Assembly: GCA_003605065.1 (NCBI GenBank)
Contig: QZJM01000020.1
Coordinates: 19,562-83,561, forward strand
Direction: 5' to 3'
Length of the DNA: 64,000 bases
DNA from: Dethiobacter sp.
GTDB taxonomy: Bacteria > Bacillota > Dethiobacteria > DTU022 > UBA8154
How positions within the stretch are numbered: the stretch's first letter is position 1; every line of letters starts with the position of its first letter. A program made the translations under genes and the position numbers. The notes beneath the pieces were generated by a model, which ran no database searches, was not told where the DNA came from, and saw only the letters and a list, made by a program, of their open reading frames with translations. Positions 13,282 through 28,247 of the stretch are shown piece by piece.

Positions 13282-13285
13282 TTGT

Positions 13286-13921
13286 ATGAGGATCGTTATT
13301 ATTGATGATCACCCCGTGGTACGCCAGGGCGTGCAGCAGACCCTGAGCCTGGAAAAGGAAATGGAAGTTGTAGGCACAGCCAGTTCCTGTCCGGATGGAG
13401 TGGAGCTGATCAACGCCCAGAAACCAGATATGGCCATCGTGGATATGAAAATGCCCGGCGGGGGCGGACTGGAGCTGATCCGCCAGGCCAGGAAACTGGT
13501 ACCACAGTGCCGTTTTATTATCCTCTCCTCTTACGCTTCCCACCGGGAAGTCTCAGAGGCCGTTTCTGAAAATGTGGAGGGCTATATCCTCAAGGAAGCC
13601 CTGCCGGAGGAACTTATTGCCGCTGTCAGGCTCGTGGCCAGGGGCCGCCGTTATTATGATCCGGAGATCATGGACAGCATTGTGAGCAAAGAAGAGAAGG
13701 ATCCCCTTAAAGATCTTACCGGCAGGGAACTGGAGATCCTCCAGGCCCTGGCTGAGGGGCTGAACAACAGGGCCATAGCGGAAAAGCTCTATATCAGTGA
13801 GAACACGGTCAAAAAGCATATCTGTAACCTTCTTGATAAGATGGAGTTTAATGACCGCACCCAGGCGGCCCTTTATGCTTTTTCCCGGGGGCTGAGCAAG
13901 GAACAGGGTATTTCTGAATAA
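13286..13921 (+). CDS. LuxR/NarL-family response regulator (DegU-like)
   Basis: REC domain (MRIVIIDDHP...IVDMKMPGG) plus a C-terminal HTH (LTGRELEILQALAEGLNNRAIAEKLYISENTVKKH). AGGAGGGG RBS. Confidence 0.9.
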   Translation: MRIVIIDDHPVVRQGVQQTLSLEKEMEVVGTASSCPDGVELINAQKPDMAIVDMKMPGGGGLELIRQARKLVPQCRFIILSSYASHREVSEAVSENVEGYILKEALPEELIAAVRLVARGRRYYDPEIMDSIVSKEEKDPLKDLTGRELEILQALAEGLNNRAIAEKLYISENTVKKHICNLLDKMEFNDRTQAALYAFSRGLSKEQGISE

Positions 13922-14021: not shown

Positions 14022-14281
14022 ATCTGTTAGGCCGCATTTTTACCATAATATATTTTGTAATTCATAACTTTTTCTTCATATAAAAGTGTGGTCTTAAGCG
14101 TAGAAATATTGTTGAAAAAAGAATTTTTTTATTCCGTACTACTTTGGGATTATTTATAAATCATCATTTCTGCCCATAAAAATTAGTTTTAAGCGTAATG
14201 TCTTTTTTGGCGTAACAGTTTAAAATCATAGTAGAAACCAGGATGGTTTTTTAAGAGACTATTAATGCACAAACCGCGATT

Positions 14282-14710
14282 ATGCACATGCAGGCTAATA
14301 GCGTAGCGGCTATTCTTGACCCCGGCGAAAATATTATCGTAGGGGTGGAGGGAACGATAGGTAACATTTCCTTTAGCGGGACCGGCTGCATTAATGTACT
14401 GGGGGAAGAGCAGCAAAAATCGGAAAAAGAAACACCAGGAGAGGAAGAAGAATTGGAAGAAGAGGAAGAGACCGGGGACAGCCTGGTTATGCTCTCCGGT
14501 AAGCTTGCCGGTGAAGTTCCTGACGATAACGGAACAGGCGGGGATCTTGAAACTGGCGACGGAGATAGCGGAAAAAACGAGGTGCTCAATACCGGTTCCG
14601 GCGAAGTTTCCGGAAAAGATGATAAGAGCATCTGGCTGGAGCAGTCCTCGGCACTATTAGAAGGTTTACCGGTACTAATCGATAACAGCAATGACGGTCT
14701 CACGGACTGA
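14282..14710 (+). CDS. acidic repeat protein. The ORF is interrupted by an in-frame TGA at 14708-14710, and the same frame continues with a conserved motif up to the TGA at 14801.
   Basis: Gly/Glu/Asp-rich. Contains copies of an LSG-LPV-ID-NG motif that also occurs in the SipW C-terminal tail. The alternative basic frame was rejected. The start codon is uncertain. Confidence 0.4.
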   Translation: MHMQANSVAAILDPGENIIVGVEGTIGNISFSGTGCINVLGEEQQKSEKETPGEEEELEEEEETGDSLVMLSGKLAGEVPDDNGTGGDLETGDGDSGKNEVLNTGSGEVSGKDDKSIWLEQSSALLEGLPVLIDNSNDGLTD

Positions 14711-14799
14711 GAAGAAAAGGCTTTCGAACTGCTGCAGGGTTGGCCTGTGATCATTGAGGATGACGCCGGTGATTTTAGGGCAGTAAGGTGGGGGATACG

Positions 14800-16098
14800 A
14801 TGAACGATAAGCTGGGAAAAAATAAAAATCAAAAAAAGGAACAAAAAAGACCGGGGGCCCTGGTCCGCATGTTCGGAGTTTTGGGCAATATAATTTTTGT
14901 TTTAATGCTTCTGGTAATGTCGGCGCTGGTATTTTTTCTGGTACAGAGCAAGATCGCGGGAAACCCCCCCGGCGTGGCGGGTTACCAGATGCTCATAGTT
15001 ATCAGCGGCAGCATGAACCCCACCTTCGATACGGGGAGCGTGGTATTTGTGCGACCAATGGACCCAAAAAACCTTGCTGCCGGGGATATTATTACTTTTA
15101 AGGGTTCCGGGGGAAGCGACAAATTAACAACCCACCGGATAGTGGACGTGCATACGGAAGACGGCCTTGGTTTTACCACCCGCGGGGATGCCAACAATGT
15201 CAATGACCCGAACATAGTTCCGGCCCGAAACGTAGTCGGGAAAGTGGTCCTGGCCATACCTTATGCCGGCTACCTGTTCAATTATGTGCAGACCAAAGAA
15301 GGTTATATAGCTTTAATCCTGATACCCGGAGTGCTGATCATTTTTACGGAGCTGTACAAGCTCCTTAAATATGCCAGGCAGGTTGACAAAAAAGAAAGCA
15401 CCGGAAAGAAGGACAAAAGACTGGCTTCCGGAAAGCATCCAGAGGAGGCGGCAGCTGAAATAGAAAATGAAGAGGACGAAGCTGCCCTGCCCGGCGGGGA
15501 AGAACCGGCATTTGTTCCCTATTACGCTCATAAAGCAGGGTTTACGGCAGGTAATTATGAGAATGCTGACTACCCGGTCAGCCAGGTCCGTGACAGGCGT
15601 GAGAATGAAGTTAAAGAGGTGCTGGAGAAAGAAAAAATAATAGCTGCTGTGAAAAAAACTGCCGCAGTGGATGAATTAGCTTTTCTAAATAAAGCTGCGG
15701 TTGTGGATAAAACTGCCGTAGCAAATGAAGCTGCCGCTGTGGATGAAATAGCCGCTGTAGATAAAACTGACATCATAAAAGAAGCTGTCATTCTAAAAGA
15801 AACTGCCGTCGTAAATGAAGCTGTCGTCATAGATGAAATAACTGTTCTAGATAAGATAGCCGCTCTCCCCGCCCAGAGCAGCGAATTCACCCCCGTGACC
15901 AGCCGTAAGCCTTACCACGGCGGGAATGAAGAAGCCAGGGAAAAAATTTGGAGAGAGCGGGCTTTTGCCATCTTGAGCGGTCTGCCCGTGGTTGTGGATG
16001 AAAATGGAGAAGAAAGGGTCTGGAAAGAGCGTGCCTTCGCCATGCTGAGCGGTTTGGCCGTGGTTATTGATGATTCCGGGAAAGAAGAGGTTAGCTAG
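14800..16098 (+). CDS. sipW: SipW-type signal peptidase I (S26B, archaeal/ER-type) with a roughly 240-aa C-terminal repeat-rich extension
   Basis: N-terminal TM segment, catalytic box VISGSMNPTFDTGSVVFV and a second TM (GYIALILIPGVLIIF). AAGGTGGGGG RBS. The extension contains Ala/Val/Asp-rich tandem repeats and two WxERAFAxLSGLPVVxD motifs. Confidence 0.8.
   Translation: MNDKLGKNKNQKKEQKRPGALVRMFGVLGNIIFVLMLLVMSALVFFLVQSKIAGNPPGVAGYQMLIVISGSMNPTFDTGSVVFVRPMDPKNLAAGDIITFKGSGGSDKLTTHRIVDVHTEDGLGFTTRGDANNVNDPNIVPARNVVGKVVLAIPYAGYLFNYVQTKEGYIALILIPGVLIIFTELYKLLKYARQVDKKESTGKKDKRLASGKHPEEAAAEIENEEDEAALPGGEEPAFVPYYAHKAGFTAGNYENADYPVSQVRDRRENEVKEVLEKEKIIAAVKKTAAVDELAFLNKAAVVDKTAVANEAAAVDEIAAVDKTDIIKEAVILKETAVVNEAVVIDEITVLDKIAALPAQSSEFTPVTSRKPYHGGNEEAREKIWRERAFAILSGLPVVVDENGEERVWKERAFAMLSGLAVVIDDSGKEEVS
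15640..15860 (+). repeat. in-frame tandem nucleotide repeats (about 30-60 bp units) encoding an AAVDE/AVVNE-type low-complexity segment inside sipW
   Basis: Seen in the sequence: units such as aaaactgccg-agt-gatgaa-tagc recur about six times. Confidence 0.6.
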
Positions 16099-16102
16099 CC
16101 CT

Positions 16103-16360
16103 ATGACCCAAAGAATCATGGTAAGTATAACAATCCTTACGCTTATGGCGGTGCTGATCGGCGGCGCCACCATGGCCTGGTTTACAGCCCAGGCGGAAAT
16201 AACCGATAACGTATTCCAGGCCGGGACACTGACCATTGACGCACAAGAAACGTGGGCATACGAAAGCGGGCCGTTGACTAACTGGAACCCCGTTTTCAAC
16301 GGGACAAGCAATAAAAACCTCAAAATTGGGGCAGGACTGCTGCAGGGTATGCCGGAATAG
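16103..16360 (+). CDS. short TasA/camelysin-family secreted protein with a SipW-cognate signal peptide
   Basis: Its signal peptide ends in GGATMAWFTAQAEITDNVFQAGTLTID, the SipW-cognate class. It lies immediately downstream of sipW. It is only about 86 aa, against about 260 aa for TasA. Confidence 0.6.
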   Translation: MTQRIMVSITILTLMAVLIGGATMAWFTAQAEITDNVFQAGTLTIDAQETWAYESGPLTNWNPVFNGTSNKNLKIGAGLLQGMPE

Positions 16361-16678
16361 GTGATATCGGCAATGCACCTGTATTTATGGAAACAAGGGA
16401 CATTAAAGGGTTTTTTTAAGGAAATACATTGAAAATTGTAAAAATCTGCAGGAATTTACATTACTTTCATCGAACTAAAGCATCAGAAAACGGTGGAAGA
16501 GAATGACGAGCTTTAGAGTTGCAGGGGCAAATAGGTTTTAATCTAAGGATCCCGGCCGGTGTTACCGGGACGACCGGAACCTGGTACAGCATGCCTTCTA
16601 CCGAACGTCAAAAAACCCTTTTTATTTCTTATAGAGCACCTGTTATTTAAAAAAATTAAAGCGGGCGGTGTAAAAAAA

Positions 16679-18820
16679 ATGGAGCGGAAGAAGCGTCTGG
16701 ATGAAATACATGGGCAGATCATGGAGCTTAAAGATCGTTTTAAACATTTGGGCTACAGGCTGATCCAAGAGGGGGAAAGACTTAAAAACCCCGGTTGTCC
16801 GCCGGACGATGTTCTCTTTCAGGAGGTTGCGGAGGAGACCAAAAAATTTAAACTCCTGACGGAAAAACTGGCAGCGGCGGGAAGAGCATTATCCTGGTCC
16901 GGGCTTAATGGCGGAGTTGATTCCCTGGACAAAATGGAGGAAATGTGGAAAGGTCTTGCCGGGCATTTAACCTACCTATATGTACTGGAACAACAAACGG
17001 AGCAGGCCATTGCTCTTGTTAAAAGAGCTATGCAAGCAACCCTGCCGGGAAAACAATTATCGGCAGAACTGGAGTCTTTCAAGAAAAAACTGCGCTATTA
17101 CGAAGAAGTTCTTTCCCGGAATGTGGATGATGAAGAAGCGGCGGAAATGCGCCGCCAGTTCTTGACGGGGGTTCACCCCCTGATCGCTTTTTTAAGGCTG
17201 GCGGAGGAGTACCTGGGAGACCATGAAGAAGCTTCAGAACTTTTTCTGGTGTCAGCGCGGGAATTTGGAAACTTGCTTACCGTAGCAGCGGCAAGGGGAA
17301 ACCTTATTCTTCCTCAGTCAGATCAAAAAGGTGCAGAAAGAAATGAAGAGGAAGTAAAAATAAAATACGAAGCAAAAAAGGTTAAAGAAGTAGAAAAAAA
17401 GGAAAGCGGAAGTAAGAGTTACAGCGGTTATTTAGATGAAATGAATGTCGAACCGGTGGCCGGCAGGAAGCTGAATCAGCGTGAGAGGCTGGTAGAGCAG
17501 ATCTTTAACCTGATCAGGGATGGTAAGCTGGGACCGGCTTTTTGGCTGAATTGTTACTGTGAACAGGTATGGGAAAAGGCGCCGCTGCCTTCCTGGCTGA
17601 TAAAAGCCGTAGAGATTGCGGAAGTTGTCGAAGGCGATGGCGGCGTGGCCGCCGGATGGCTTTCTTACATTTACAAGCACAATAATTTTGAGAGCCTGCT
17701 GGAAAAGAAAACTGGAGGAGAAAATAAGTTGGTGTTCAGTCTTTTCTCAGCTGCTTCCCTGTTGAGACCGGCCCTGGTGGCACCCGGAAGTGGTGCACCT
17801 CTCCTCCTGAAAAAAATAGGTGGTCTGCCCGGGGGTATTCAGGAACTCTGCGCTGTGCTGGCCGGTAACGGGGAGCAGGTTGGATTGGATTGGAAAAAGG
17901 AATTACAGGCGCTCTCCCACGAGGTAACGACCTGGCAGAAACGGAACCAGAAGTTGACCCTGGCCTCCCCCCTGGCGGTAAAGTTATGGGAGAAGATGCA
18001 GGAAGAAGGAGAATTACTCTATAAACTCCTGCAGCCTGTGAAAGAAAACGCAAAGGGTGCCCTAGAAGATATCCGCATGCTTGTCTCCTACCTGCGTGAA
18101 GAAAACAATCTCAAGAAGGAAGTGGCCGATCTTTATTACGGAATGCAGGATTCAAAAGAGTCCCTGGAAATTTTCCATATACCTGGGTCCTGGCAGGTGC
18201 TGGCCCGTTTAAGAGAGGCTTTAAAGCTGGCTGAACGCTGGTTAAAGCTCCACGAGAGAATTACCAAAAATAAGGAAGCAAGAACTCCCCAGAAAGATGA
18301 TTTGCGGGAACCCCTGTTGTCAGCCAGGAAGGACCTGGAGGGGGCGGCCAGGAAGTATGGGGATGATACCATGGTTAGTGCGGGAATCGCTTTATGCGAG
18401 CGTGTGTTTGATTCCCTGGAAAAATATTTTCAGGAAAGAAGGACGGAAATTCCCACAGCAGAAGTACTGTCTGCTCTGGAGTTGAGCAAGAACCCCCAGT
18501 TGAAACTTAAACCATCCTGGAAGCCTAAAGCAGAAACTGTGGAAAAGCTGGGAAAAGCCCTGGTGGAACTTTTAAATGAAGGAGAAGTAAATACCGGAAA
18601 GGCAGAGACAAAAAACGATGATCTGGAATTTGCTGTGAGAAAAGAGGCCGGCACTTATAATCTTTCGAATAACGATACAGCACTTCCGACCCCTAATCTG
18701 AGAAAGACGTGGGAAAGAGATGAAGTATTATCACCACAGGAACGGGATTTTTTAATGAACACCCTGAGAAGCTTTTATAAGGAAAGAACCGAACAGCAAC
18801 AAGACTTAAATGAAAGCTAA
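16679..18820 (+). CDS. large hypothetical soluble protein (about 713 aa) with no domain I recognise
   Basis: Long ORF, Glu/Lys-rich and predicted helical. Its stop overlaps the start of the next gene, which suggests translational coupling. The track ORF begins at 16559, but MERKKRLDEI at 16679 is the first plausible start. Confidence 0.55.
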   Translation: MERKKRLDEIHGQIMELKDRFKHLGYRLIQEGERLKNPGCPPDDVLFQEVAEETKKFKLLTEKLAAAGRALSWSGLNGGVDSLDKMEEMWKGLAGHLTYLYVLEQQTEQAIALVKRAMQATLPGKQLSAELESFKKKLRYYEEVLSRNVDDEEAAEMRRQFLTGVHPLIAFLRLAEEYLGDHEEASELFLVSAREFGNLLTVAAARGNLILPQSDQKGAERNEEEVKIKYEAKKVKEVEKKESGSKSYSGYLDEMNVEPVAGRKLNQRERLVEQIFNLIRDGKLGPAFWLNCYCEQVWEKAPLPSWLIKAVEIAEVVEGDGGVAAGWLSYIYKHNNFESLLEKKTGGENKLVFSLFSAASLLRPALVAPGSGAPLLLKKIGGLPGGIQELCAVLAGNGEQVGLDWKKELQALSHEVTTWQKRNQKLTLASPLAVKLWEKMQEEGELLYKLLQPVKENAKGALEDIRMLVSYLREENNLKKEVADLYYGMQDSKESLEIFHIPGSWQVLARLREALKLAERWLKLHERITKNKEARTPQKDDLREPLLSARKDLEGAARKYGDDTMVSAGIALCERVFDSLEKYFQERRTEIPTAEVLSALELSKNPQLKLKPSWKPKAETVEKLGKALVELLNEGEVNTGKAETKNDDLEFAVRKEAGTYNLSNNDTALPTPNLRKTWERDEVLSPQERDFLMNTLRSFYKERTEQQQDLNES

Positions 18821-21386
18821 AGAGAAAGGAATGATTAATTCCTTGCCTTCTCCTATCAATGCTACGGGAATACTTTTACACGGCAGCTTGAAGGAGCCTC
18901 CTCTTGCCGAAGAGGCCTTAAGGGCCTTAAATTCAGAGGCTTATTCTTCGGCGGGGTTTAAAAAGGCTGCCGGTTCGGATTATTACTCCTACAGGCAGCT
19001 GGAAGAACTTATTTGTACCCTCACGGAAGCTGAGGATGTCCTGGTGGTTAATAACCTCATGGCGGCGGCCTTTCTAGTTTTCCATACCCTGGCGCGGGGC
19101 AGGGAGATTATTGTTTCCAGGAGGGATCTGCACCAAAATGCTTTTTCCGCTTCCCTGGCCGGGGTTGCCCAGAGTTGTGGGGCATACCTGAAAGAAGTGG
19201 GAGGGAAGGAAACCGCCGCACCCGGGGATTATCAGGGTGCTGTTACGGAGCAGTCGGCCCTGTTTTTGACGATTAACAGTCTGGGCAGTTCTAAAAGGGA
19301 AGCTTTCCATGAAGGTATGCCTGCCGGCTTGGGGAAGCCTGAGCTGGCAGTGGTGGGTATTCTTGATAATGCTGCGCTGCTGGATCTGGCACCTTTCGGG
19401 CTGCCCGACGTGCTGCAGGTCCAAAAGCTGATCACCGGAGGGTTTGACATTGTTGTTTTTAGGGGCGATAAGCTCCTGGGAGGGCCCCCGGCAGGAATTA
19501 TAGCCGGAAAAGGCAGGTATCTTTCCCTGCTTAAGCAGGCAACGCTGGCTTCCGCTTTAAGCGCTGGCAGGATCGATAGGGCGACGCTGGAAGCGACTTT
19601 GGCATTATACCTGGACAAGGAAGAGGCTCTGAAGAAAATCCCTTTGCTGAGCATGATTTCGGCGCCACCCCCCCGTATTGAAAAACGGGCCTGGAAACTT
19701 GTTGAAGAGCTGAAGGATTCACTGGAAGGGGTGTTTAATATCAGTATGACTGCCGGGGAAGCCCATATCACTGAGGAAAGCAACGGTCTGGGGGCACTCC
19801 CCAGTTTTCAGGTGTCTATCAGTTCAGAGAAGCTTTCTGCCGCTCAGATTTCTGAACTGCTGACTAAAGGTAATCCACCGGTAATTCCATGTGAATTGAA
19901 AGAGGCGATTTTGCTTGATCTCAGATCTGTCCAGGAAAAAGAAGATGATCTTTTACTTAATTCCATACTTGATTCCCTGGGAGGAGACCGCAAGGAAATC
20001 CGGGTGCTCGATACAGTTCCCAGTCCCATCTGGACGTTAAATGAAGAGAATACCTTTATTTATGCCAACAAAGCCTGTGAGAATTTCTGGGGGTTGGAGA
20101 ACAGCAGCATCTTAGGTAAAGCAATAAGTGAGATTCTTGCCCCGGGAGAGGCAGGAGCCTTATTAAAGAGTATAAAGACGGTAATGAAAAGCAAAGAAAA
20201 AATCGCCATCGAACTAAAGATGAAATCTTTTGGGAACAAGGATAAATGGATGGATATTATTCTTGTACCGCTCTTAAATGGTCAGGAAGAAATTTCCGGG
20301 GTTACATTTACGGCGCATGATGTTACAGAGCGCAAGCGTACTGAAGAAGAATTGAAATATATCAGTATGCATGATTCACTGACGGGTCTTTATAACCGGG
20401 TTTATTTTGAAGAGGAGATGCGTCGGCTAAACACTCACCGGCACTACCCCCTAAGCATTATTGTCTGTGATGTGGACGGTTTGAAGTTTACAAATGATAT
20501 CCTGGGACATGAAAAAGGAGACAAGCTTTTAAAGACGGCGTCTAATCTTATTAAAAAGCCTTTTCGTACATCCGATGTGGTGGCCAGGGTAGGAGGAGAC
20601 GAGTTTGCCATTATTCTGCCCCGGACCAATGAAAAGACCGCGGAGGAGATCTGTGAACGTATAAAAAAGAATGTCGAAAAATACAACCAGGAAAAGAAAG
20701 GTATTCCCTTGAGCCTTCCCCTTGGTTTTGCCACAGGAGAAGAGGCCTCCGGGGGAATTCTGGAAATATTTAAAAATGCGGACAGCAATATGTATAAAAA
20801 TAAATTTGCCCATGGCAAAGCAGTGAAAAGGCAGGTTTTTGAATCTCTGCTGGAAATTCTGGCGGAGAAAGACTTTATGAGCAAGAGTAAAGCAGAACGA
20901 CTGCAGGAAATGCTGCTGTTGCTTGGACAGGCTGTGGGGATGTCACCGGGGGAAATAAAAAATATTTTATTGCTGTCCAGGGTATATGATATTGGCAAGG
21001 TGAATATCGATGATTCCATTCTCTTTAAAGAAGGAGCGTTAAGTGACGCAGAGTGGGAGGAAATTAAACGCCACCCGGAAACAGGTTATCGTATTGCCCG
21101 TTTTTCAGCGGAAATGAACCCCATCGCCGATTTCATTATGCAGCACCATGAATGGTGGGACGGGAATGGTTATCCTGCCGGCTTAAAGGGGAAGGATATC
21201 CACCTTTACCCCCGCATTTTGGCTATTGTGGACGCCTATCAGGCCATGACCAGTCACAGGCCTTACAGGGAGCTACTTTCCCGTGAAGAAGCCATTCAGG
21301 AACTGAAGAGATGCAGCGGAATTCAGTTCGATCCCCGGCTGGTAGAGATCTTTATAAACTTAATCGACCAGGAGAACTTAGTTTAA
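18810..21386 (+). CDS. multidomain signalling protein: degenerate SelA-like domain, PAS, GGDEF (diguanylate cyclase) and HD-GYP (c-di-GMP phosphodiesterase)
   Basis: The N-terminal roughly 300 aa align to selenocysteine synthase SelA (VLVVNNLMAAAFLV...REIIVSRRDL...FRGDKLLGGPPAGIIAGK...RATLEATLALYL). A PAS domain follows. The GGDEF domain carries RVGGDEFAIIL. The HD-GYP domain carries HHEWWDGNGYPAGLKG. An alternative start is the ATG at 18831. Confidence 0.85.
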   Translation: MKAKEKGMINSLPSPINATGILLHGSLKEPPLAEEALRALNSEAYSSAGFKKAAGSDYYSYRQLEELICTLTEAEDVLVVNNLMAAAFLVFHTLARGREIIVSRRDLHQNAFSASLAGVAQSCGAYLKEVGGKETAAPGDYQGAVTEQSALFLTINSLGSSKREAFHEGMPAGLGKPELAVVGILDNAALLDLAPFGLPDVLQVQKLITGGFDIVVFRGDKLLGGPPAGIIAGKGRYLSLLKQATLASALSAGRIDRATLEATLALYLDKEEALKKIPLLSMISAPPPRIEKRAWKLVEELKDSLEGVFNISMTAGEAHITEESNGLGALPSFQVSISSEKLSAAQISELLTKGNPPVIPCELKEAILLDLRSVQEKEDDLLLNSILDSLGGDRKEIRVLDTVPSPIWTLNEENTFIYANKACENFWGLENSSILGKAISEILAPGEAGALLKSIKTVMKSKEKIAIELKMKSFGNKDKWMDIILVPLLNGQEEISGVTFTAHDVTERKRTEEELKYISMHDSLTGLYNRVYFEEEMRRLNTHRHYPLSIIVCDVDGLKFTNDILGHEKGDKLLKTASNLIKKPFRTSDVVARVGGDEFAIILPRTNEKTAEEICERIKKNVEKYNQEKKGIPLSLPLGFATGEEASGGILEIFKNADSNMYKNKFAHGKAVKRQVFESLLEILAEKDFMSKSKAERLQEMLLLLGQAVGMSPGEIKNILLLSRVYDIGKVNIDDSILFKEGALSDAEWEEIKRHPETGYRIARFSAEMNPIADFIMQHHEWWDGNGYPAGLKGKDIHLYPRILAIVDAYQAMTSHRPYRELLSREEAIQELKRCSGIQFDPRLVEIFINLIDQENLV

Positions 21387-21452: not shown

Positions 21453-22667
21453 ATGGCAGAAGTGGTTATTACCGGTTTAGGTCCTGTGGCCCCCAACGGT
21501 GTAGGTAAAGAGAGCTTCTGGAATGCCCTTAAAGAAGGGAAGTCGGGTATTCGCCGCATCAGCCGCTTTGACCCGGACGGTAGTATTTCCCGGATAGCCG
21601 GTGAGGTTCCACCTGAATGGGTGGAGGCTATCAGCCCCTTTCCCGGAACAAAAAGAGCCTGGAGCACCCATATGGTTATAACTGCGGCACACCTGGCCAT
21701 GGATGATGCTGGCATAAGCAAAGCGGAATTTTCCAAGAGCCTGTCCGGTATCTATGTGGGGATCAGCACCAATGACATGGAGTTTGGTGAACGGGAATAT
21801 GAAACGTTTAAACACTCCGGTTCCACCAAAGCTAATGTTATCTCTTCTTCCTTTCCTCATGCCGCTGCCAGTGAAATAGCCGGCGAATTTAAGTGTGCGG
21901 GGCGGGTAATGACTGTCTCTACGGCATGTTCTTCCGGTATTTTGAGTATCATCTCTGGTGCGGAATCTATCCTGAGGGGCGAGAACGATCTGGTTTTAGC
22001 CGGCGGAGGGGATGCCCCCCTGACTCCCTTTGTTGTTTCCTGTTTTTCCTCTGCGGGCCTTCATCCCACCTCTTATAATGACAGTCCCCTTATGGCCAGC
22101 AGGCCTTTTGATGCTAAAAGGGACGGAGGCGTTTTATCCGAGGGGGCGGGAATGATCGTTATCGAAAACTCCGAGAGGGCTCGTTTAAGGGGGGCAAAGG
22201 TTTATGCCAGGATCAGCGGCTGGGGAGTTGCCAACGCCACTTCCCCGTTGTCTGTGACTTTATCTTTTGTCTCTTCCATAACCCAGGCTCTGCAAAAAGC
22301 CAAACTACCCCTGAATATGCTGGATTATATCTGTGCCCATGCACCCGGCATTAAATTTACAGATAAAGTCGAAACAGAAGCGATTAAAAATGTTTTTGGA
22401 CAGTACGCTTACAACCTGCCGGTTAGCTCCATTAAATCTATGATAGGCAACCCCCTGTCTGCGGCAGGCCCTTTGCAGGTAATTACCACAGCCCTGGTTA
22501 TACAAAATAAGTTTATCCCACCCACCGTAAACTATGAGCACCCTGACCCGGCCTGCGATCTGGATTACGTTCCCAACAGGGGGCGTGTGGCCAGGGTAAG
22601 AAATGCCCTGATAAACCTTTTAGGTGTTGGTGGCTGCATTGTTTCCATGGTTATAACCGAGCCATAG
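21453..22667 (+). CDS. beta-ketoacyl-ACP synthase I/II (FabF/FabB)-like thiolase-fold protein with a non-canonical active site
   Basis: KAS N- and C-domains with VSTACSSG (Cys) and CAHAPG (His). The second catalytic His is replaced by Asn (KSMIGNPLSAAG against canonical KSMTGHLLGAAG). No other fab genes are nearby. Confidence 0.8.
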   Translation: MAEVVITGLGPVAPNGVGKESFWNALKEGKSGIRRISRFDPDGSISRIAGEVPPEWVEAISPFPGTKRAWSTHMVITAAHLAMDDAGISKAEFSKSLSGIYVGISTNDMEFGEREYETFKHSGSTKANVISSSFPHAAASEIAGEFKCAGRVMTVSTACSSGILSIISGAESILRGENDLVLAGGGDAPLTPFVVSCFSSAGLHPTSYNDSPLMASRPFDAKRDGGVLSEGAGMIVIENSERARLRGAKVYARISGWGVANATSPLSVTLSFVSSITQALQKAKLPLNMLDYICAHAPGIKFTDKVETEAIKNVFGQYAYNLPVSSIKSMIGNPLSAAGPLQVITTALVIQNKFIPPTVNYEHPDPACDLDYVPNRGRVARVRNALINLLGVGGCIVSMVITEP

Positions 22668-22670
22668 AGA

Positions 22671-25160
22671 ATGGAGAAAAGTATGATTATTTTTACTATT
22701 GTATTGTTAGCTCTGATAGCAGTGGCTCACGTAGTAATGGGCACAATTATTTATAAAAAGGCTCCCCGTGCTATGCTCAACCGTTTATGCCTGGGTTTTG
22801 CGCTAAATGCCAGTTTATGGAGTGTTTCTGTTCTTTTTGTTATTCTGCAAAATGATTACGAGCAGGCCCTTTTCTGGATTAGAATGTCACATGCCTTGGC
22901 GGCGACTACACCCTCGTTTATGTTTGCCCTGGTTTATTGTTTTAAAGCCGGGATTAAGTATCCTTACAGAAAAGTGTTCTGGGTTTTTTTGTTCAGCCTG
23001 GCACTGGCCTTGTTGTGTTTGACGCCTGCCGTTATTAAGGATGTAGTCCTGGCCGCGGAAGGTAAAATTAAGATTTATGGCCCCGTTTTCCCTCTTTATA
23101 CGATCTTTTTCGCAGTGGTGCCTGTCCTTTCCCTGTACAACCTTTTCCGGCAGCTGCGCCAGTCACGGGGCCTGGTTCGTTTCCAAATACGTTATTTTTT
23201 CGGTGGTATTCTTATTGCTTTTATTTTAGGTAGCCTTGTTAACCTTTTTCTTCCGCTGATGGGCATTACAACAGATAACCTGCGCAGTTTGGGGCCTGTA
23301 TTTACGCTTATAAGCGTTATCTCCATTACTTATGCCATTGCTAAGTACCGTCTGATGGATATAAGCTTAGCCCTTCGCCGGATCATTGCCAATTCCCTGT
23401 CCATAATGCTGGTGGCCGGGATTTATATCTTGGCAATTTTCCTGGCAAAAAAGCAATTTATGGCTTATTCGGATTATTTAACATTATTTTTAATTATTCT
23501 GCTGGTTGTTTCATTCCAGACAATAAAGAACCAGGTACAGTCATTAATTGACCGGTACTTTTTCCGTGGTGCTTATAATTACTTTACGACTCTGAGAAAT
23601 GTTACTAAAGCCATGGTTTCCATTCTTAACAGGGAAAAGCTCCTTTCCTTTCTGACAGACAAGATTATGGAGACTATTTATATCCGGGGGGCTGCTTTTT
23701 TTCTAAGGGAACAAGACGGCTCCTTTACCGCTGTAACAAAAAAATATCTAGCACCTTTTCTTCCTTTGGAGAAAGAATACAGCAAATTGGAGCCCGAAAA
23801 CCCCCTGATCCTGCTCCTGGAAAAAAGGGGAGATGTACTGCTGAAAACTGATTTAAGGGGCGTTGAGCCTGAAGAAAAAAGAGAACTTCTTGTGGGAGAA
23901 ATGAAAAAACTTCATTCTGAAGTGGCTGTGCCGCTGTTTATAGAAGGGAAAATGGACGGTGTTTTTTTCCTGGGTTACAAATTGTCGGGAGAGCCGTATT
24001 CCAAGGAGGATGTAAACCTGCTTTCCACTTTAAGTTATCAGATTGCCGTTTCTCTAAAGAATGCCCGGCTTTACCATGAGATCCTGGAGATTAAGCAATA
24101 TCTGGAGAATGTCCTGGAAAATATGGGTAACGGGTTGATAGCCGTTAATGCGGGGGGAAGGATCACTACTTTTAACAGCACAGCGGAGAAACTTACAGGT
24201 TTAAAAGCCAGGGAGGTACTGGGTAAAAAGGTGGATAAAACCCTTGATCCCGGGTTGTCCTGGCAGTTGCTGCAGACCTTAAATAACGGTCAGAGGAGAA
24301 GTGAAGTGGAAGTAGAGGTGCCGGTAGGTAACTTGACATGCTTTTTGTGCTGCAGCACGGCCCTGGTAGAGTTGAACGATTCAAGGGAACGCGGAGCGAT
24401 TATGGCTCTAAGCGATATCACCCGTATTAAAGAGCTGGAGAGAGAAAAAAGCGAAGTGCAAAGGCTGGCTTCCCTGGGGGAAATGGCCGCAGGAATGGCG
24501 CACGAAATAAAAAACCCGCTTGTATCCATTAAAACCTTTGCGGAACTCCTGCCAGAAAAATACGAAAACCATGAGTTTCGTTACAGTTTTTCCCAGATAG
24601 TATCCCAGGAAATAGAACGTATCAACAACCTGGTCATGGGGCTTCTTAAAATTTCCAGAGATCAGCAGGTCTATAATTATGATGAGGTTAATATTGAAGT
24701 TCTGCTGGACGAAATTTTTCTTTTAGTACTTCCCCAGCTTAATGCGCAAAATATAGGCGTTTATAAGCATTATGAACCGGACGTTCCCGTTATTCAGGCT
24801 GACAGGGAACAGTTAAAACAAGCTCTTTTTAATATATGTTTAAATGGAATTCAGGCCATGCCCGGGGGTGGGGAGCTGAGGGTGGAAATTTTACCTGTTA
24901 TGGTTCTCGCTGGTGAGACGGCCGGCGTTCTTTCCCCGGGGAAAAAGGTAAAGATAGTGATTGAAGATACGGGAATAGGGATTTCTTCTCCGGAAAAAGA
25001 AAAGATATTTGATCCATTTTTTACTACCAAGGCTGATGGGGTGGGAATCGGCTTGAGTATAAGCCATCGTGTGATCACCAGCCATGGGGGGAGCATTCAG
25101 GTCCGCAGCAGTAAAGGTGAAGGGACTGTTTTTGAGATTTACCTTCCGGCCGGGGATTAA
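22671..25160 (+). CDS. sensor histidine kinase: N-terminal 7TM sensor, GAF, PAS, HisKA, HATPase
   Basis: Seven N-terminal TM segments, an H-box AHEIKNPLVSIKTFAELL and complete N/G1/G2 boxes (DTGIGI, GVGIGLS). It starts 4 nt after the KAS-like gene. Confidence 0.85.
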   Translation: MEKSMIIFTIVLLALIAVAHVVMGTIIYKKAPRAMLNRLCLGFALNASLWSVSVLFVILQNDYEQALFWIRMSHALAATTPSFMFALVYCFKAGIKYPYRKVFWVFLFSLALALLCLTPAVIKDVVLAAEGKIKIYGPVFPLYTIFFAVVPVLSLYNLFRQLRQSRGLVRFQIRYFFGGILIAFILGSLVNLFLPLMGITTDNLRSLGPVFTLISVISITYAIAKYRLMDISLALRRIIANSLSIMLVAGIYILAIFLAKKQFMAYSDYLTLFLIILLVVSFQTIKNQVQSLIDRYFFRGAYNYFTTLRNVTKAMVSILNREKLLSFLTDKIMETIYIRGAAFFLREQDGSFTAVTKKYLAPFLPLEKEYSKLEPENPLILLLEKRGDVLLKTDLRGVEPEEKRELLVGEMKKLHSEVAVPLFIEGKMDGVFFLGYKLSGEPYSKEDVNLLSTLSYQIAVSLKNARLYHEILEIKQYLENVLENMGNGLIAVNAGGRITTFNSTAEKLTGLKAREVLGKKVDKTLDPGLSWQLLQTLNNGQRRSEVEVEVPVGNLTCFLCCSTALVELNDSRERGAIMALSDITRIKELEREKSEVQRLASLGEMAAGMAHEIKNPLVSIKTFAELLPEKYENHEFRYSFSQIVSQEIERINNLVMGLLKISRDQQVYNYDEVNIEVLLDEIFLLVLPQLNAQNIGVYKHYEPDVPVIQADREQLKQALFNICLNGIQAMPGGGELRVEILPVMVLAGETAGVLSPGKKVKIVIEDTGIGISSPEKEKIFDPFFTTKADGVGIGLSISHRVITSHGGSIQVRSSKGEGTVFEIYLPAGD

Positions 25161-25213
25161 TTAATTTGCAGGGTGTTATTCAAAAATAAGTCGCGAGAGA
25201 TAGATTATCCACA

Positions 25214-27226
25214 TTGGAAAGGCAGTTGTATAAGTTGAAGCTGGTTGTGCTCATTTCCCAAAAAGAAAGTATCTTAAGGAAAATTAAAGAGTTTATCCCG
25301 GAAGACTATATCCTCCTGGAGGGTGAACCCGGGCCGAAAGGTTTACAGCTGCTGGGGAATATAGTTTCCGGTGTTATCCTGGTGGATACCAGTATCCACG
25401 GTATTCAAATGTGGATCGGAGAGGCCTTGCGGCTGAGAGCTGATTTAACCTACCTGGGAATTGCCGATAGAGCGGCTGCTGAAAATTTTCCATTCCCATT
25501 GTTTTATGACTTCATTTCTCCGCCTTTTAATTCCCGGCAGGTAAGCAGTTTGCTCGAGCGGGCCTGGGAAAGGGGTCAGCTTAATTTTGAACTTAAGACG
25601 CTTAAAAAAAATCCCGGGGGTAATGATGTAAACAGCTCTTTAAACAGCTCTTCCTCCCATCGCCTCAAGGAGCATGTTTTGTGTGAATTCTCCAGGGCGT
25701 TGAGTAATAATTTTAACCGGAACCGTCTCCTGGAGCTTTTTATGGATGCCGTTGCAGAACTGGTACCTGTGGGGAAATTATCACTTTTGTTATTTAACGA
25801 GAACCTGAATAAGTTTATAATTTCGGCGCAAAGAGGGCTGGATCCGCTTTACTGTTCCGGATTACTGTTTAATCCTTCCTCGGGGCTGCTTGCCTGGTTA
25901 ACCGGGGAGGGACGCATCCTTCGTACCGAAGAAGCAGCGGGCTTTGCTAAAACTTCCTCAGAAGTCCTCCAGGAGATGAAGCTGCTGCAGGCTGTCGTTT
26001 GTATACCGCTGGTGGTCCATGGGCAGTTGGTGGGAACTCTTAACCTGGGTCCCAAGGTGACCGGTTCGCTGTTCTCTGACGATGAGCTTGAGGTGCTTTA
26101 TATACTGTCCGGAAATGTTGCTATGGCCTTACGAGATATTGAGCTGCATCACCAGATACGCTATCAAAAATATTTTATTGAAAATATTCTTCAGCGTATG
26201 AATAGCGGTGTTATAGCTATAAACCAGGAAAATCTGATCATAACTTTCAACTATCGCGCCGGAAAAATACTGTCTTTTCAGCCGGAAGAGGTAATGGGTA
26301 AGGATCTGCGTTGTTTGCCCAGCCCCCTTGGAGATTTGCTCTATGACACCCTTACTATGGGCAGGGTGTATCATAAAGAGGAGATTATACTGGCATTCGG
26401 GCATATTCCCCTGGAATTCAGTACCTATCAATTGCTGGATGAAGAGCGGGCTGTTGCCGGGAGTGTGATGATCTTTGATGATATATCAGAAAGAAAACAG
26501 CTGGAGGTAGAGCGCCGCCAGGCCGATCAACTGGATGTTCTTAACAAGTTTGTGGGGCAGCTGGCTCATGAAATTAAAAATCCGATGGTGGCTATACAGA
26601 CTTTTTGCGAACTTTTACCGGAAAAATATGAAGACAGCTCTTTCCGTGATTTTTTTACCCATACCGTTCGCCAGGAAGTTCAGAGGTTAAATGAACTGGT
26701 GGAGCAGCTTATTGCTTTTTCCACTTCACTTTCCTACAAGTTCATGCCTGTAGAGATTCATGAGACCCTGGACAGGGCCCTCTTAATGCTGCAGGAACAG
26801 GGTAAGGGGCAGAAGACCTCCGTTAATACTTCTTATTCACCGGATAAGTTTAACATTAGGGCTGATAAAATCTTACTGGCCAGGTCTTTTTCTTATCTCC
26901 TGAGAAACTCTTTTCAGGCTATGGAAAAAGGAGGCAGCCTTTTTATCCATACATTTTTTGATGGCTCTTTATTTGAAAATGGAGGCGTTGGTATTCACTT
27001 CTGGGATTCCGAAACAAAAACGGAGATCAGTAACGTGGAGAAATTATTTAATCCCCTTTGTGCCCGGGAGAGCGGGTATATATCCCTGGAGCTGCCGGTT
27101 TGCCGTAAAATTATTGAGGATCACGGCGGACATGTCCGAGCGTCTTTAACCAAGGACAAATATCTTAAGTTTGAGGTATATTTGCCGATATTTTCTGGTG
27201 AAGGGGGTGAAAATGTTGCCACATAA
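25214..27226 (+). CDS. paralogous cytoplasmic sensor histidine kinase (pseudo-receiver-like N-terminus, GAF, PAS, HisKA) with a degenerate ATP-binding domain
   Basis: H-box LAHEIKNPMVAIQTFCELL is present. The G1 (DxGxG) and G2 (GxGxGL) boxes of the HATPase domain are not recognisable. The TTG start is uncertain. Confidence 0.7.
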   Translation: MERQLYKLKLVVLISQKESILRKIKEFIPEDYILLEGEPGPKGLQLLGNIVSGVILVDTSIHGIQMWIGEALRLRADLTYLGIADRAAAENFPFPLFYDFISPPFNSRQVSSLLERAWERGQLNFELKTLKKNPGGNDVNSSLNSSSSHRLKEHVLCEFSRALSNNFNRNRLLELFMDAVAELVPVGKLSLLLFNENLNKFIISAQRGLDPLYCSGLLFNPSSGLLAWLTGEGRILRTEEAAGFAKTSSEVLQEMKLLQAVVCIPLVVHGQLVGTLNLGPKVTGSLFSDDELEVLYILSGNVAMALRDIELHHQIRYQKYFIENILQRMNSGVIAINQENLIITFNYRAGKILSFQPEEVMGKDLRCLPSPLGDLLYDTLTMGRVYHKEEIILAFGHIPLEFSTYQLLDEERAVAGSVMIFDDISERKQLEVERRQADQLDVLNKFVGQLAHEIKNPMVAIQTFCELLPEKYEDSSFRDFFTHTVRQEVQRLNELVEQLIAFSTSLSYKFMPVEIHETLDRALLMLQEQGKGQKTSVNTSYSPDKFNIRADKILLARSFSYLLRNSFQAMEKGGSLFIHTFFDGSLFENGGVGIHFWDSETKTEISNVEKLFNPLCARESGYISLELPVCRKIIEDHGGHVRASLTKDKYLKFEVYLPIFSGEGGENVAT

Positions 27227-28247
27227 GCCCAGAATACTGATCGTCGATGATGAACTGGGACCAAGGGAAGCGCTGAGGATGATTTTATCTGATGATTACG
27301 ATGTGGTTGCGGCCAGTAACGGGAATCAGGCCATGGAAAACCTTTCCCGGTTAGAATTTGATCTGGTGATACTGGATATCAGGATGCCCGATATCAGCGG
27401 TATTGACCTTCTGGCCGAGGTGAGGAAAAAAGCTCCGGATACGGAGGTTGTTATGATTACCGCTTATGCCTCCGTGGATACGGCTACCAATGCCCTGCGA
27501 CTCGGTGCCCTGGATTATCTCATTAAACCATTTGATCGGCATTCCGTGAAGGAGGCCGTGGAAAAAGGCCTTTCACGCCGCAGTAAAACTAAAACGCTTA
27601 AGAGTAAGCTGGACGAACTTGAGCTTGTCAACGAGTCCCTGAAAGCGGAAGCTGAAAATGCTTACAATAATATCCACAAGCATTATACGGAAACGGTGCG
27701 GTCGCTGGTAACAGCCATCGATGCTAAAGATTCCTATACCAAGGGGCACCAGGAAAGGGTCGCCATTTATGCTATGCTCCTGGCGGTGGAAGTAAATCTT
27801 TCTGTCGGTGAAATGAGCCTGCTCCAACAGGCAGCGGTACTCCATGATATAGGAAAGATCGGGGTGCTGGAGAACATTCTCAGGAAAAAAGGGCCGCTTA
27901 CACCGGAGGAGTTTAAATTAATTAAACAGCATCCTGTCATTGGGGCGGGGATTATTTCTCCTGTAGAGTTCCTTAAAGAAGCAGTCCCCATAGTTCTTCA
28001 TCATCACGAGAAATTTGATGGGACGGGCTATCCCCGGGGTCTTAAGGGTTTGCACATACCAGAAGGTGCCAGGATCATCACAATTGCCGATGCTGTAGAT
28101 GCCATGTTAACTGAACGCCCTTATGCGCAGGCTAAAACACCCTCGCAGGTAAGAGAGCAGCTGCTCCTCTGCTCGGGAACACAGTTTGATCCCCGGCTGG
28201 TAAGGATTGCTTTAAAAATAGACCTGCCTTCCAGACGTATACTCTAA
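27213..28247 (+). CDS. response regulator with an HD-GYP output domain (c-di-GMP phosphodiesterase class)
   Basis: REC domain (ILIVDDE...LVILDIRMPD) followed by HD-GYP (HHHEKFDGTGYPRGLKG). It overlaps the previous kinase by 14 nt. GGGGG RBS. Confidence 0.85.
   Translation: MLPHKPRILIVDDELGPREALRMILSDDYDVVAASNGNQAMENLSRLEFDLVILDIRMPDISGIDLLAEVRKKAPDTEVVMITAYASVDTATNALRLGALDYLIKPFDRHSVKEAVEKGLSRRSKTKTLKSKLDELELVNESLKAEAENAYNNIHKHYTETVRSLVTAIDAKDSYTKGHQERVAIYAMLLAVEVNLSVGEMSLLQQAAVLHDIGKIGVLENILRKKGPLTPEEFKLIKQHPVIGAGIISPVEFLKEAVPIVLHHHEKFDGTGYPRGLKGLHIPEGARIITIADAVDAMLTERPYAQAKTPSQVREQLLLCSGTQFDPRLVRIALKIDLPSRRIL

Follow-up and report, generated by a model that had tools for sequence, protein, structure and literature searches.

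A stretch of 64,000 nucleotides from the metagenome-assembled genome of a Dethiobacter sp. (Bacillota, Dethiobacteria; contig QZJM01000020.1, positions 19,562 to 83,561 of the forward strand), which is referred to as the window, encodes at positions 18810..21386 of its forward strand a protein in which a descendant of the selenocysteine synthase SelA precedes the PAS, GGDEF and HD-GYP domains of a cyclic di-GMP (c-di-GMP) signalling protein. The region consists of one unbroken open reading frame (ORF) of 858 codons starting at the ATG at 18810, where the frame is closed by a stop codon directly on the 5' side. The true start is probably the methionine at position 8 (M8, at 18831), which is where all orthologues start and where the gene is called on a 99%-identical contig. 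In the NCBI database, the protein has a counterpart of 100% identity in the entry RJX27995.1, 'MAG: diguanylate cyclase [Dethiobacter sp.]', a public name that omits SelA.

The initial annotation had proposed a SelA-derived N-terminal module ahead of PAS-GGDEF-HD-GYP, and it had named the lack of a significant SelA match in a profile search as the result that would speak against it. Its proposal is borne out by the match to the Pfam family SelA (PF03841), which at E=7.6e-61 (206.6 bits vs a cut-off of 22.8) extends over residues 16-374 and profile positions 2-366 of 367. The similarity is wider than the residues ~60-340 originally assigned, spanning residues 11-385 in the match to the NCBIfam model TIGR00474. 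The module defined by this match (18840..19964) contains the N-linker, core and C-terminal domains of SelA without its tRNA-binding N-domain, and it retains, in the segment FRGDKLLGGPPAG, a lysine (K221, codon 19470..19472) that in the alignment to the SelA structure 3w1h is the equivalent of the Schiff-base lysine K285 of AaSelA. It is followed by a PAS sensor domain at residues 398-512 (20001..20345; Pfam PAS_4 at 400-510, E=1.6e-13) and a GGDEF domain at residues 516-668 (20355..20813; PF00990 at 520-667, E=1.2e-35), with the GGDEF motif at 595-599 and an RxxD I-site at R586-D589. The C-terminus is formed by a degenerate HD-GYP domain at residues 675-854 (20832..21371; Pfam HD_5/HD, of the HD-GYP type PF13487 / PF01966, at 680-844, E=6e-29), which was also defined by alignments to PmGH (4mcw) and to a REC-HD-GYP protein encoded nearby. 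The gene product is probably a cytoplasmic c-di-GMP signalling protein in which a catalytically dead descendant of SelA makes up the first ~380 residues.

Relatives of the fused protein

Word-indexed searches with the N-terminal module and with a profile of three family members returned only stand-alone canonical SelAs of ≤37-38% identity and no member of the family, which was found by an exhaustive HMMER search of 1.84 billion representatives and then through the partner gene located upstream. The HMMER search yielded three full-length relatives, namely P0121, which is 99% identical, starts at M8 and is contained in the contig index with an unmarked SelA match of E at most 1e-5, P0122 (46% identical, 854 residues; SelA E=3.1e-35) and P0123 (40% identical, 841 residues; SelA E=2.2e-22). 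In the search with the upstream orphan ORF, four of the five inspected loci (L169-L172) were found to hold genes for SelA-PAS-GGDEF-HD-GYP proteins of 846-850 residues with SelA E-values of 1e-56 to 1e-72. The gene order in these four loci is orphan ORF, SelA-diguanylate cyclase (SelA-DGC), (S-adenosylmethionine (SAM) methyltransferase), FabF-like beta-ketoacyl synthase (KAS) and HisKA_7TM kinase, and L170 also has the housekeeping genes located upstream in the window. The fusion is present in at least seven distinct lineages with conserved synteny, the one of the window and six further orthologues. No fused member was detected in two scans of a species-representative genome collection, and a metagenome scan with the full-length alignment gave, among the matches listed, only PAS-GGDEF-HD-GYP relatives without SelA. 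Such SelA-less proteins (for example P0124, P0126 and P0128) are 44-49% identical in their C-terminal 460 residues but have no N-terminal module. The SelA-PAS-GGDEF-HD-GYP family is thus very small and consists of a handful of uncultured Bacillota.

The initial annotation was aware of no described SelA-like domain in signal-transduction proteins, which agrees with our own survey: we found no description of the architecture in the literature on SelA with GGDEF, on selenocysteine synthase pseudoenzymes and on SelA-like proteins and pyridoxal 5'-phosphate (PLP), and a SelA fusion is not mentioned in a survey of HD-GYP architectures (Galperin and Chou, bioRxiv 10.1101/2021.11.05.467447). The new part is the SelA-derived pseudoenzyme as a type of input module of a multi-domain GGDEF protein, the sequence itself being already public under its generic name. 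The signals that act on c-di-GMP enzymes are determined by their N-terminal input domains, of which further types continue to be catalogued. Automated annotation assigns the protein only as 'diguanylate cyclase', and a SelA Pfam match on such proteins should not be read as a sign of selenocysteine use. The impact of these observations is limited by the tiny size of the family, its restriction to uncultured Bacillota, the improbable link to PLP or selenium and the inferred nature of the mechanism.

Ancestry and residue pattern of the SelA-derived module

The module has retained the features of SelA on the level of the fold. Its sequence matches the SelA structure 3w1h at E=1.8e-42 and solved SelA structures in general at ~1e-42, with an identity of 28-30% to the solved structures and of 33-37% to the closest canonical SelAs. 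A model of the module obtained with AlphaFold2 (AF2) from a 62-sequence alignment is of high confidence, with a predicted local distance difference test (pLDDT) of 88.4 and a predicted template modelling (pTM) score of 0.88, and in Foldseek it superimposes on SelA with template modelling (TM) scores of 0.85-0.88 (0.88 for SelA-deltaN, 3wco), compared to only 0.59-0.66 for DgaE and Cap15. This difference in scores underlies the assignment of the module, on its modelled fold, to the tRNA-dependent SelA branch, from which it derives with the fold kept and the chemistry not. The two more distant proteins, D-glucosaminate-6-phosphate ammonia-lyase (DgaE, 7lc0) and Cap15 (8t7j), resemble the module as dimeric fold-type-I members of the SelA superfamily without a tRNA-binding domain but, unlike it, are active PLP enzymes, and they share only 16-17% of its residues. 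Another PLP family as better match, which the initial annotation had named as a potential objection, was rejected in light of this structural distance and of the insignificant scores of Beta_elim_lyase (E=0.048) and Cys_Met_Meta_PP (E=0.2). An assignment as an aminotransferase-like sensor domain of the MocR type was equally rejected, as SelA, and not the aminotransferases of classes I/II, gives the best match in both fold and profile.

The relationship to canonical SelA, with which the module shares the fold and the order of the N-linker, core and C-terminal domain, ends at the features required for catalysis, since canonical SelA contains a tRNA-binding N-domain, the arginines R86, R119, R312 and R315 and a set of PLP contacts, and is not fused to signalling domains. 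The tRNA(Sec)-binding N-domain (PF12390) was not matched in the window protein or in any orthologue. The window protein begins at the N-linker with stop codons directly upstream, and the preceding ORF was dismissed as source of the missing N-domain or of a SelB-like protein, as it has no Pfam or NCBIfam match. The score against the NCBIfam equivalog TIGR00474 amounts to 225 bits, which is under the curated cut-off of 267.9, and the match covers only profile positions 72-452. Judged by its sequence, the protein is outside the functional SelA family, as it lacks the N-domain and the set of arginines, does not have the complement of PLP ligands and remains under the cut-off of the equivalog.

The changes in the active site are evident from an alignment of the module with 120 canonical SelAs, which contains 98 columns that are at least 95% invariant and where the window protein differs at 46 of them. 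The motifs listed in the initial annotation are present as it described them: VVNN, EVG, DY, GDKLLGGP.AG (with K221) and LEATL.LYL are retained, to which the alignment adds INATG, whereas catalytic stretches are eroded, with TTNRT replaced by GKETA and HTSN by NSLG, corresponding in the alignment to the conversion of EVGTTNKT into EVGGKETA and of VHTSN into INSLG. Of the residues with roles in AaSelA that are given in PMC4607533 and PMC11047290, two are kept, namely K221 at the position of K285, which forms the Schiff base with PLP, and D220, the equivalent of D284, which positions R86. The PLP phosphate ligand S282 is replaced by R218, and S217 of the VHTSN motif, which interacts with O3' of PLP, falls into the INSLG segment, which contains a deletion and replaces the region of S217 and H215. 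R86, which takes part in selenophosphate binding and a proton relay and works with the PLP-lysine, is replaced by E29; R119, which positions R312, by S60; and the selenophosphate-binding residues R312 and R315 by S248 and S251. The invariant aspartate D247 of EDLGSG corresponds to I184.

Among the family members, 29 of the 98 columns are lost in all seven. These include R116, R119, R312 and R315; the TN and G of HTNLGR, whose R86 survives only in L171; the E-IGG-FR-P loop, TTN-T, H-SN and the D-G-G of EDLGSG; and the Q of GGPQ, the K of RxDK and GGG-P. The SelA arginines are gone from all members save one arginine at position 29 (L171), with a lysine at position 248 in L170. The 17 columns retained in all seven are mostly glycines, prolines or other structural positions, and the N-linker motif INA(T/S)G is found in six members and reads FNVSG in P0123. 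The five closer lineages share particular substitutions, with GR.PL converted to KEPPL and the motifs SRE/DDL..KFS and S.NGW. Since these replacements are themselves conserved within the five lineages, they indicate a remodelling of the site rather than random decay.

A comparable pattern is found in the residues that mediate oligomerization. The segment 218-224, reported as crucial for the dimer-dimer contacts of AaSelA, is shortened by ~5-7 residues in core members of the family, and T191 and T192, two of the sites where mutations depentamerise AaSelA (PMC11047290), are replaced by G132 and K133 in the window protein. We thus infer that the tight dimer would be retained and the decameric ring lost. 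The same pattern is shown by SelA of Helicobacter pylori, which together with that of H. acinonychis and of some Frankia represents independent losses of the N-domain in the main SelA lineage (PMC4607533), where the ring contacts between dimers have decayed and the contacts within dimers were kept. In contrast to the module, where all but the equivalents of K285 and D284 are lost, H. pylori SelA keeps K285, R86, R312, R315, R119 and D284 and still binds PLP, and it is a stand-alone protein that is regarded as an enzyme acting on a different substrate, whereas the module is fused to PAS-GGDEF-HD-GYP. N-truncated SelA is therefore the nearest evolutionary precedent, while the nearest functional precedent is the sensory domain of MocR/GabR. 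In the MocR, GabR and PdxR regulators, a GntR-type winged helix-turn-helix is combined with an aminotransferase-like domain, which is the established example of a PLP enzyme fold of fold-type I that a signalling protein has recruited for dimerisation and sensing (PMC5320631, PMC6917764). The two cases differ in that the regulators contain a fold resembling aspartate aminotransferase that keeps PLP for ligand sensing and acts on DNA binding, whereas the module resembles SelA and has lost most PLP ligands. SelA thereby becomes one of the few PLP folds that signalling proteins have recruited, MocR/GabR being the classic case.

This precedent raises the question of whether the module of the Dethiobacter protein and its four closest lineages could itself be a PLP-dependent sensor, in which K221 forms an internal aldimine and where the recognition of an amino acid, an aminoacyl moiety or a B6 vitamer is signalled to the cyclase. 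In favour of such a role, GDKLLGGP with its Asp-Lys pair is strictly conserved in five lineages whose modules are only ~50% identical, VVNN and INATG, which are both located near the cofactor site of SelA, are kept, and the domains of MocR/GabR demonstrate that fold-type-I proteins can act as PLP-binding sensors. However, the contacts to PLP other than the lysine are gone, as reflected in the replacement of S282 by R, P or G in six of seven members, the replaced or deleted segment of S217/H215 and the presence of I, V, L or W at the position of D247 in all seven. The position of R86 carries E, K or S in six of seven members, and the lysine itself, while found in five lineages including that of the window, is R in P0122 and G in P0123, which have both kept the whole architecture. 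We thus regard a PLP sensor as unlikely. The pocket, whose state the initial annotation had suggested to assess by structure prediction, has lost its PLP contacts except for the lysine, while the fold is modelled confidently, and the proposed binding of PLP or a seryl ligand, which would link selenium metabolism to c-di-GMP, appears improbable in light of the variable lysine (K/R/G), the absence of the other PLP contacts and the arginines, and the missing N-domain. A broader version, where in the five lineages with GDKLLGGP a phosphorylated or amino ligand (PLP, a B6 vitamer, or an aminoacyl or nucleotide compound) would bind at K221 and switch the dimer geometry and the output of the cyclase, is a little more doubtful still. 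If true, this switch would constitute a previously unknown class of sensory input to c-di-GMP signalling, derived from a tRNA-modifying enzyme, that links amino-acid or B6 status to biofilm formation.

Output domains, selection and proposed role of the module

In contrast to the module, the GGDEF domain has kept its characteristic motifs. Its RVGGDEF motif is intact, as originally proposed for a diguanylate cyclase and now confirmed by alignment, and GGDEF (G595-F599) and the RxxD I-site (R586-T-S-D589), located five residues upstream, are invariant in seven of seven members. As both motifs are invariant, the protein should be a product-inhibited diguanylate cyclase.

Different properties are found for the HD-GYP domain, which we have compared with PmGH (4mcw), whose residues H189, H221-D222, H250, H276-H277 and D305 served as the reference set for metal binding, and with the intact REC-HD-GYP protein encoded at 27171-28247. 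The first metal-binding histidine (PmGH H189) corresponds to K694 (codon 20889-20891) and is lost in all seven members, where it is K, G, Q or Y. The histidine of the HD motif (PmGH H221) corresponds to Y726 (codon 20985-20987) in the sequence Y726-D727, and this position is Y in three lineages, L in one and H in three. Other residues of the site, including H755, H779-H780, G787-Y788-P789 and D808, are kept in the window protein, and the HHExxDGxGYP motif is present as H779-H780-E-W-W-D-G-N-G787-Y-P789. In P0123 the domain reads YN-GYP, with HR instead of HH, whereas P0126, P0128 and more distant SelA-less relatives keep an intact HD motif and the REC-HD-GYP protein encoded 6 kb downstream keeps the full set. 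Since every member has lost one metal-binding histidine, and the window protein a second, the assignment as a phosphodiesterase in the initial annotation, which had overlooked this degeneration (K694, Y726), is doubtful with respect to activity. The domain is nevertheless the second most constrained part of the protein in terms of its substitution rates, and this strong constraint implies that it has a function. Pseudomonas aeruginosa PA2572 is reportedly a YN-GYP protein with a degenerate HD-GYP domain. As in PA2572 and inactive members of the RpfG family, the histidine of the HD motif is replaced (YD in the window protein) and GYP retained. The window protein is distinguished by the location of the degenerate domain behind an intact GGDEF domain in the same chain, and its family by three members that keep HD while all lack the first histidine. 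Inactive HD-GYP domains were reported to act by binding or protein-protein interaction instead of hydrolysis, with one RpfG protein being active though lacking a key histidine (Galperin and Chou, bioRxiv 10.1101/2021.11.05.467447).

The domains also differ in their divergence. Within the seven-lineage family, the identity to the window protein is 26-52% for the SelA-like module, 28-51% for PAS, 61-72% for GGDEF and 53-65% for HD-GYP. The ratios of non-synonymous to synonymous substitution rates (dN/dS, Nei-Gojobori), determined for the two closest informative pairs, are 0.21 and 0.26 for the SelA-like module, 0.27 and 0.24 for PAS, 0.07 and 0.06 for GGDEF and 0.09 and 0.07 for HD-GYP, values that are approximate since dS, at ~1.0-1.1, is near saturation. 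PAS thus diverges as fast as the module, and these sequence comparisons place the latter under purifying selection at a rate that is typical of a sensory input domain. A dN/dS of ~0.2, which equals that of PAS, argues that the module is a pseudoenzyme maintained by selection rather than a relic.

An orthologue without the module is found in P0124 (L004:10001-11512), a protein of 503 residues whose syntenic locus contains an orphan ORF of 39% identity (E=8e-74) before and KAS, 7TM kinase and GAF kinase genes behind it. In a neighbour-joining tree, P0124 groups with the SelA-bearing proteins at 82% bootstrap support, with a placement inside or outside of them not separated. Its first ~40 residues can be aligned to the final strand and helix of SelA (ILVDLKT..EKKEEPLLNLLLSSL), which is detected by BLASTP against the window protein at E=9e-6 and by hhalign at SelA profile positions 441-472 with E=0.005. 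On the basis of this short remnant, which looks like the scar of a deletion, we favour a secondary loss of the module in P0124. Together, the lineages would provide a natural series for the study of pseudoenzyme evolution, with the lysine kept in five, replaced in two and the module deleted in one.

PLP proteins of fold-type I form tight dimers obligatorily, and the activity of diguanylate cyclases depends on two GGDEF domains coming together. From the combination of these two properties, we propose that the SelA module serves as a dimerising or regulatory input scaffold rather than as a cofactor-using enzyme, an interpretation that we hold with moderate confidence. In such a mechanism, the dimeric module would determine how the two PAS-GGDEF arms are arranged relative to each other, possibly under the influence of a ligand bound in the remodelled pocket or of the all-helical protein that is the product of the preceding gene. 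As enzymatic output, the intact GGDEF domain would synthesise c-di-GMP under product inhibition via RxxD, with the HD-GYP domain acting probably as a weakened phosphodiesterase, or as a domain for c-di-GMP sensing or protein interaction. The gene is located in a conserved cluster together with kinase genes, biofilm-matrix genes and the gene of an RpfG-type regulator, and the likely physiological output would concern biofilm and surface behaviour. The protein would thus offer a clean and datable case in which an enzyme of the translation machinery lost its tRNA-binding domain, catalytic residues and ring contacts and was afterwards maintained by selection as front module of a diguanylate cyclase.

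Several points weigh against a catalytically dead scaffold. The mechanism is extrapolated from how fold-type-I proteins and GGDEF enzymes behave in general, and D247, whose loss contributes to the picture of an abolished cofactor site, is presumably the aspartate interacting with the pyridine N1, a role that we assume from fold-type-I enzymes in general. The strict conservation of GDKLLGGP and its lysine in five diverged lineages suggests that some function of this loop persists, and a cofactor-like ligand would be possible in that subclade. To the saturation of dS come the differences within the pair of 99%-identical strains, where five non-synonymous and two synonymous changes fall into the module compared to none and one elsewhere, which hints weakly at a relaxed constraint in numbers that are too small to interpret (8 substitutions). 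Finally, at least one syntenic orthologue, P0124, can dispense with the module, which is thus accessory to core signalling.

The last two of these points would also be expected if the SelA part were an evolutionary relic, a functionless leftover of the fusion that remains in frame only for the translation of the downstream domains and is on its way to deletion. P0124, which has lost all but the last ~35 residues of the module, the changes between the two strains and the fact that the module is, together with PAS, the fastest-evolving part of the protein are all in line with this scenario. We still consider it improbable, as the ratio of ~0.2 is far below 1 and equals that of PAS, the SelA profile is matched over its full length at E=1e-22 to 1e-72 in seven lineages, the fold is predicted confidently and the substituted positions are conserved within the subclade. 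Even less probable is a new enzymatic activity, where the remodelled pocket would catalyse a PLP-independent reaction or bind an RNA- or tRNA-like ligand with its turnover coupled to c-di-GMP. The family motifs KEPPL, SRE/DDL..KFS and S.NGW, which stand in for the catalytic motifs of SelA, and the argument that N-truncated SelA homologues possibly have other activities (PMC4607533) could be read in this way. However, the module shows no candidate catalytic constellation, these motifs are missing in the two most divergent members, and the positively charged residues of SelA that bind phosphate or RNA are lost along with the N-domain. The scaffold with its remodelled pocket hence remains the reading that we prefer.

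The genomic neighbourhood

The gene is directly preceded by the orphan partner ORF (16679..18820, forward strand; the longest ORF starts at 16559), which overlaps the start of SelA-DGC by 11 nucleotides (nt) and has no Pfam or NCBIfam match. Its AF2 model is all-alpha-helical with low confidence (pLDDT 58, pTM 0.30). The orphan family comprises 9 clusters and is found directly upstream of the DGC gene in every orthologous locus including the SelA-less one; on the contigs of P0122 and P0123, a homologous unannotated ORF of 550-750 residues precedes the gene (E=1e-76 and 9e-40). One family member, in the locus L168, has no DGC gene downstream.

On the other side, SelA-DGC is followed by the FabF-like KAS (21453..22667, forward strand; Pfam, NCBIfam), which is 58% identical in the locus of P0122 and also present in L004, L005, L167 and L169-L172. 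This stand-alone KAS is under the cut-off of the fabF equivalog (317 vs 494 bits). In all orthologous loci it directly follows the DGC gene or is one methyltransferase gene further downstream, which associates a KAS with a c-di-GMP signalling cluster. Downstream on the same strand, Pfam matches define a HisKA_7TM-GAF-PAS histidine kinase (22671-25160), a GAF-PAS histidine kinase (25214-27226) and an RpfG-type REC-HD-GYP protein with a full HD motif (27171-28247). These signalling genes (22671..28247) are found in identical order in L005 and L169-L171. As listed, the ORFs of the GAF-PAS kinase and of REC-HD-GYP overlap by up to 56 nt, which suggests either translational coupling with the RpfG-type partner or an over-extended call of a TTG start.

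Upstream of the orphan ORF, and likewise on the forward strand, Pfam and NCBIfam assign a HisKA_3 kinase (11572-13281), a LuxR-type response regulator (13226-13921), a SipW-type signal peptidase (14788-16098) and a SipW-cognate TasA/camelysin-like ORF (16067-16360). The pair of HisKA_3 and GerE proteins is also found in L001 and L003, and the locus of P0122 also encodes a PilZ protein. The SipW-type peptidase carries a C-terminal extension of ~240 residues with A/V/D/E repeats and duplicated ERVWKERAFAxLSGL segments. Its gene is overlapped by the 97-residue ORF at 16067-16360, which combines a SipW-cognate signal peptide with a short camelysin/TasA-like match and which, being far shorter than TasA (~260 residues), may be truncated or encode a different matrix protein. 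The 64-kb window contains no tRNA gene of any kind, and no sel gene was found among 25 scanned neighbour ORFs, whose products belong to signalling, biofilm, cell-wall or housekeeping functions or are without a family match. By its gene content, the neighbourhood is thus one of c-di-GMP and biofilm and not of selenium.

The Logan contig L167 is 98.6% identical to the window on the nt level from 14062 to 21367, followed by an abrupt divergence. The break at ~21367 is located 19 nt before the stop codon at 21384-21386, with the consequence that the six C-terminal residues of the DGC are not the same. Beyond it, L167 has a SAM methyltransferase gene that is absent from the window and a KAS gene of 70% nt and 67% amino acid identity. 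The break reflects either recombination between strains at this point or a chimera that arose in one of the assemblies. This break and the origin of the sequence from a metagenome-assembled genome might be taken as signs of a frameshift or mis-assembly that has fused a selA pseudogene to a PAS-GGDEF-HD-GYP gene, but such an artefact is ruled out for practical purposes by the recurrence of the fusion in at least seven distinct lineages, where NCBI, JGI and Logan contigs independently contain the continuous ORF and the reading frame is preserved across the junction in every case, and by the location of the break at the 3' end of the gene instead of the junction between SelA and PAS.

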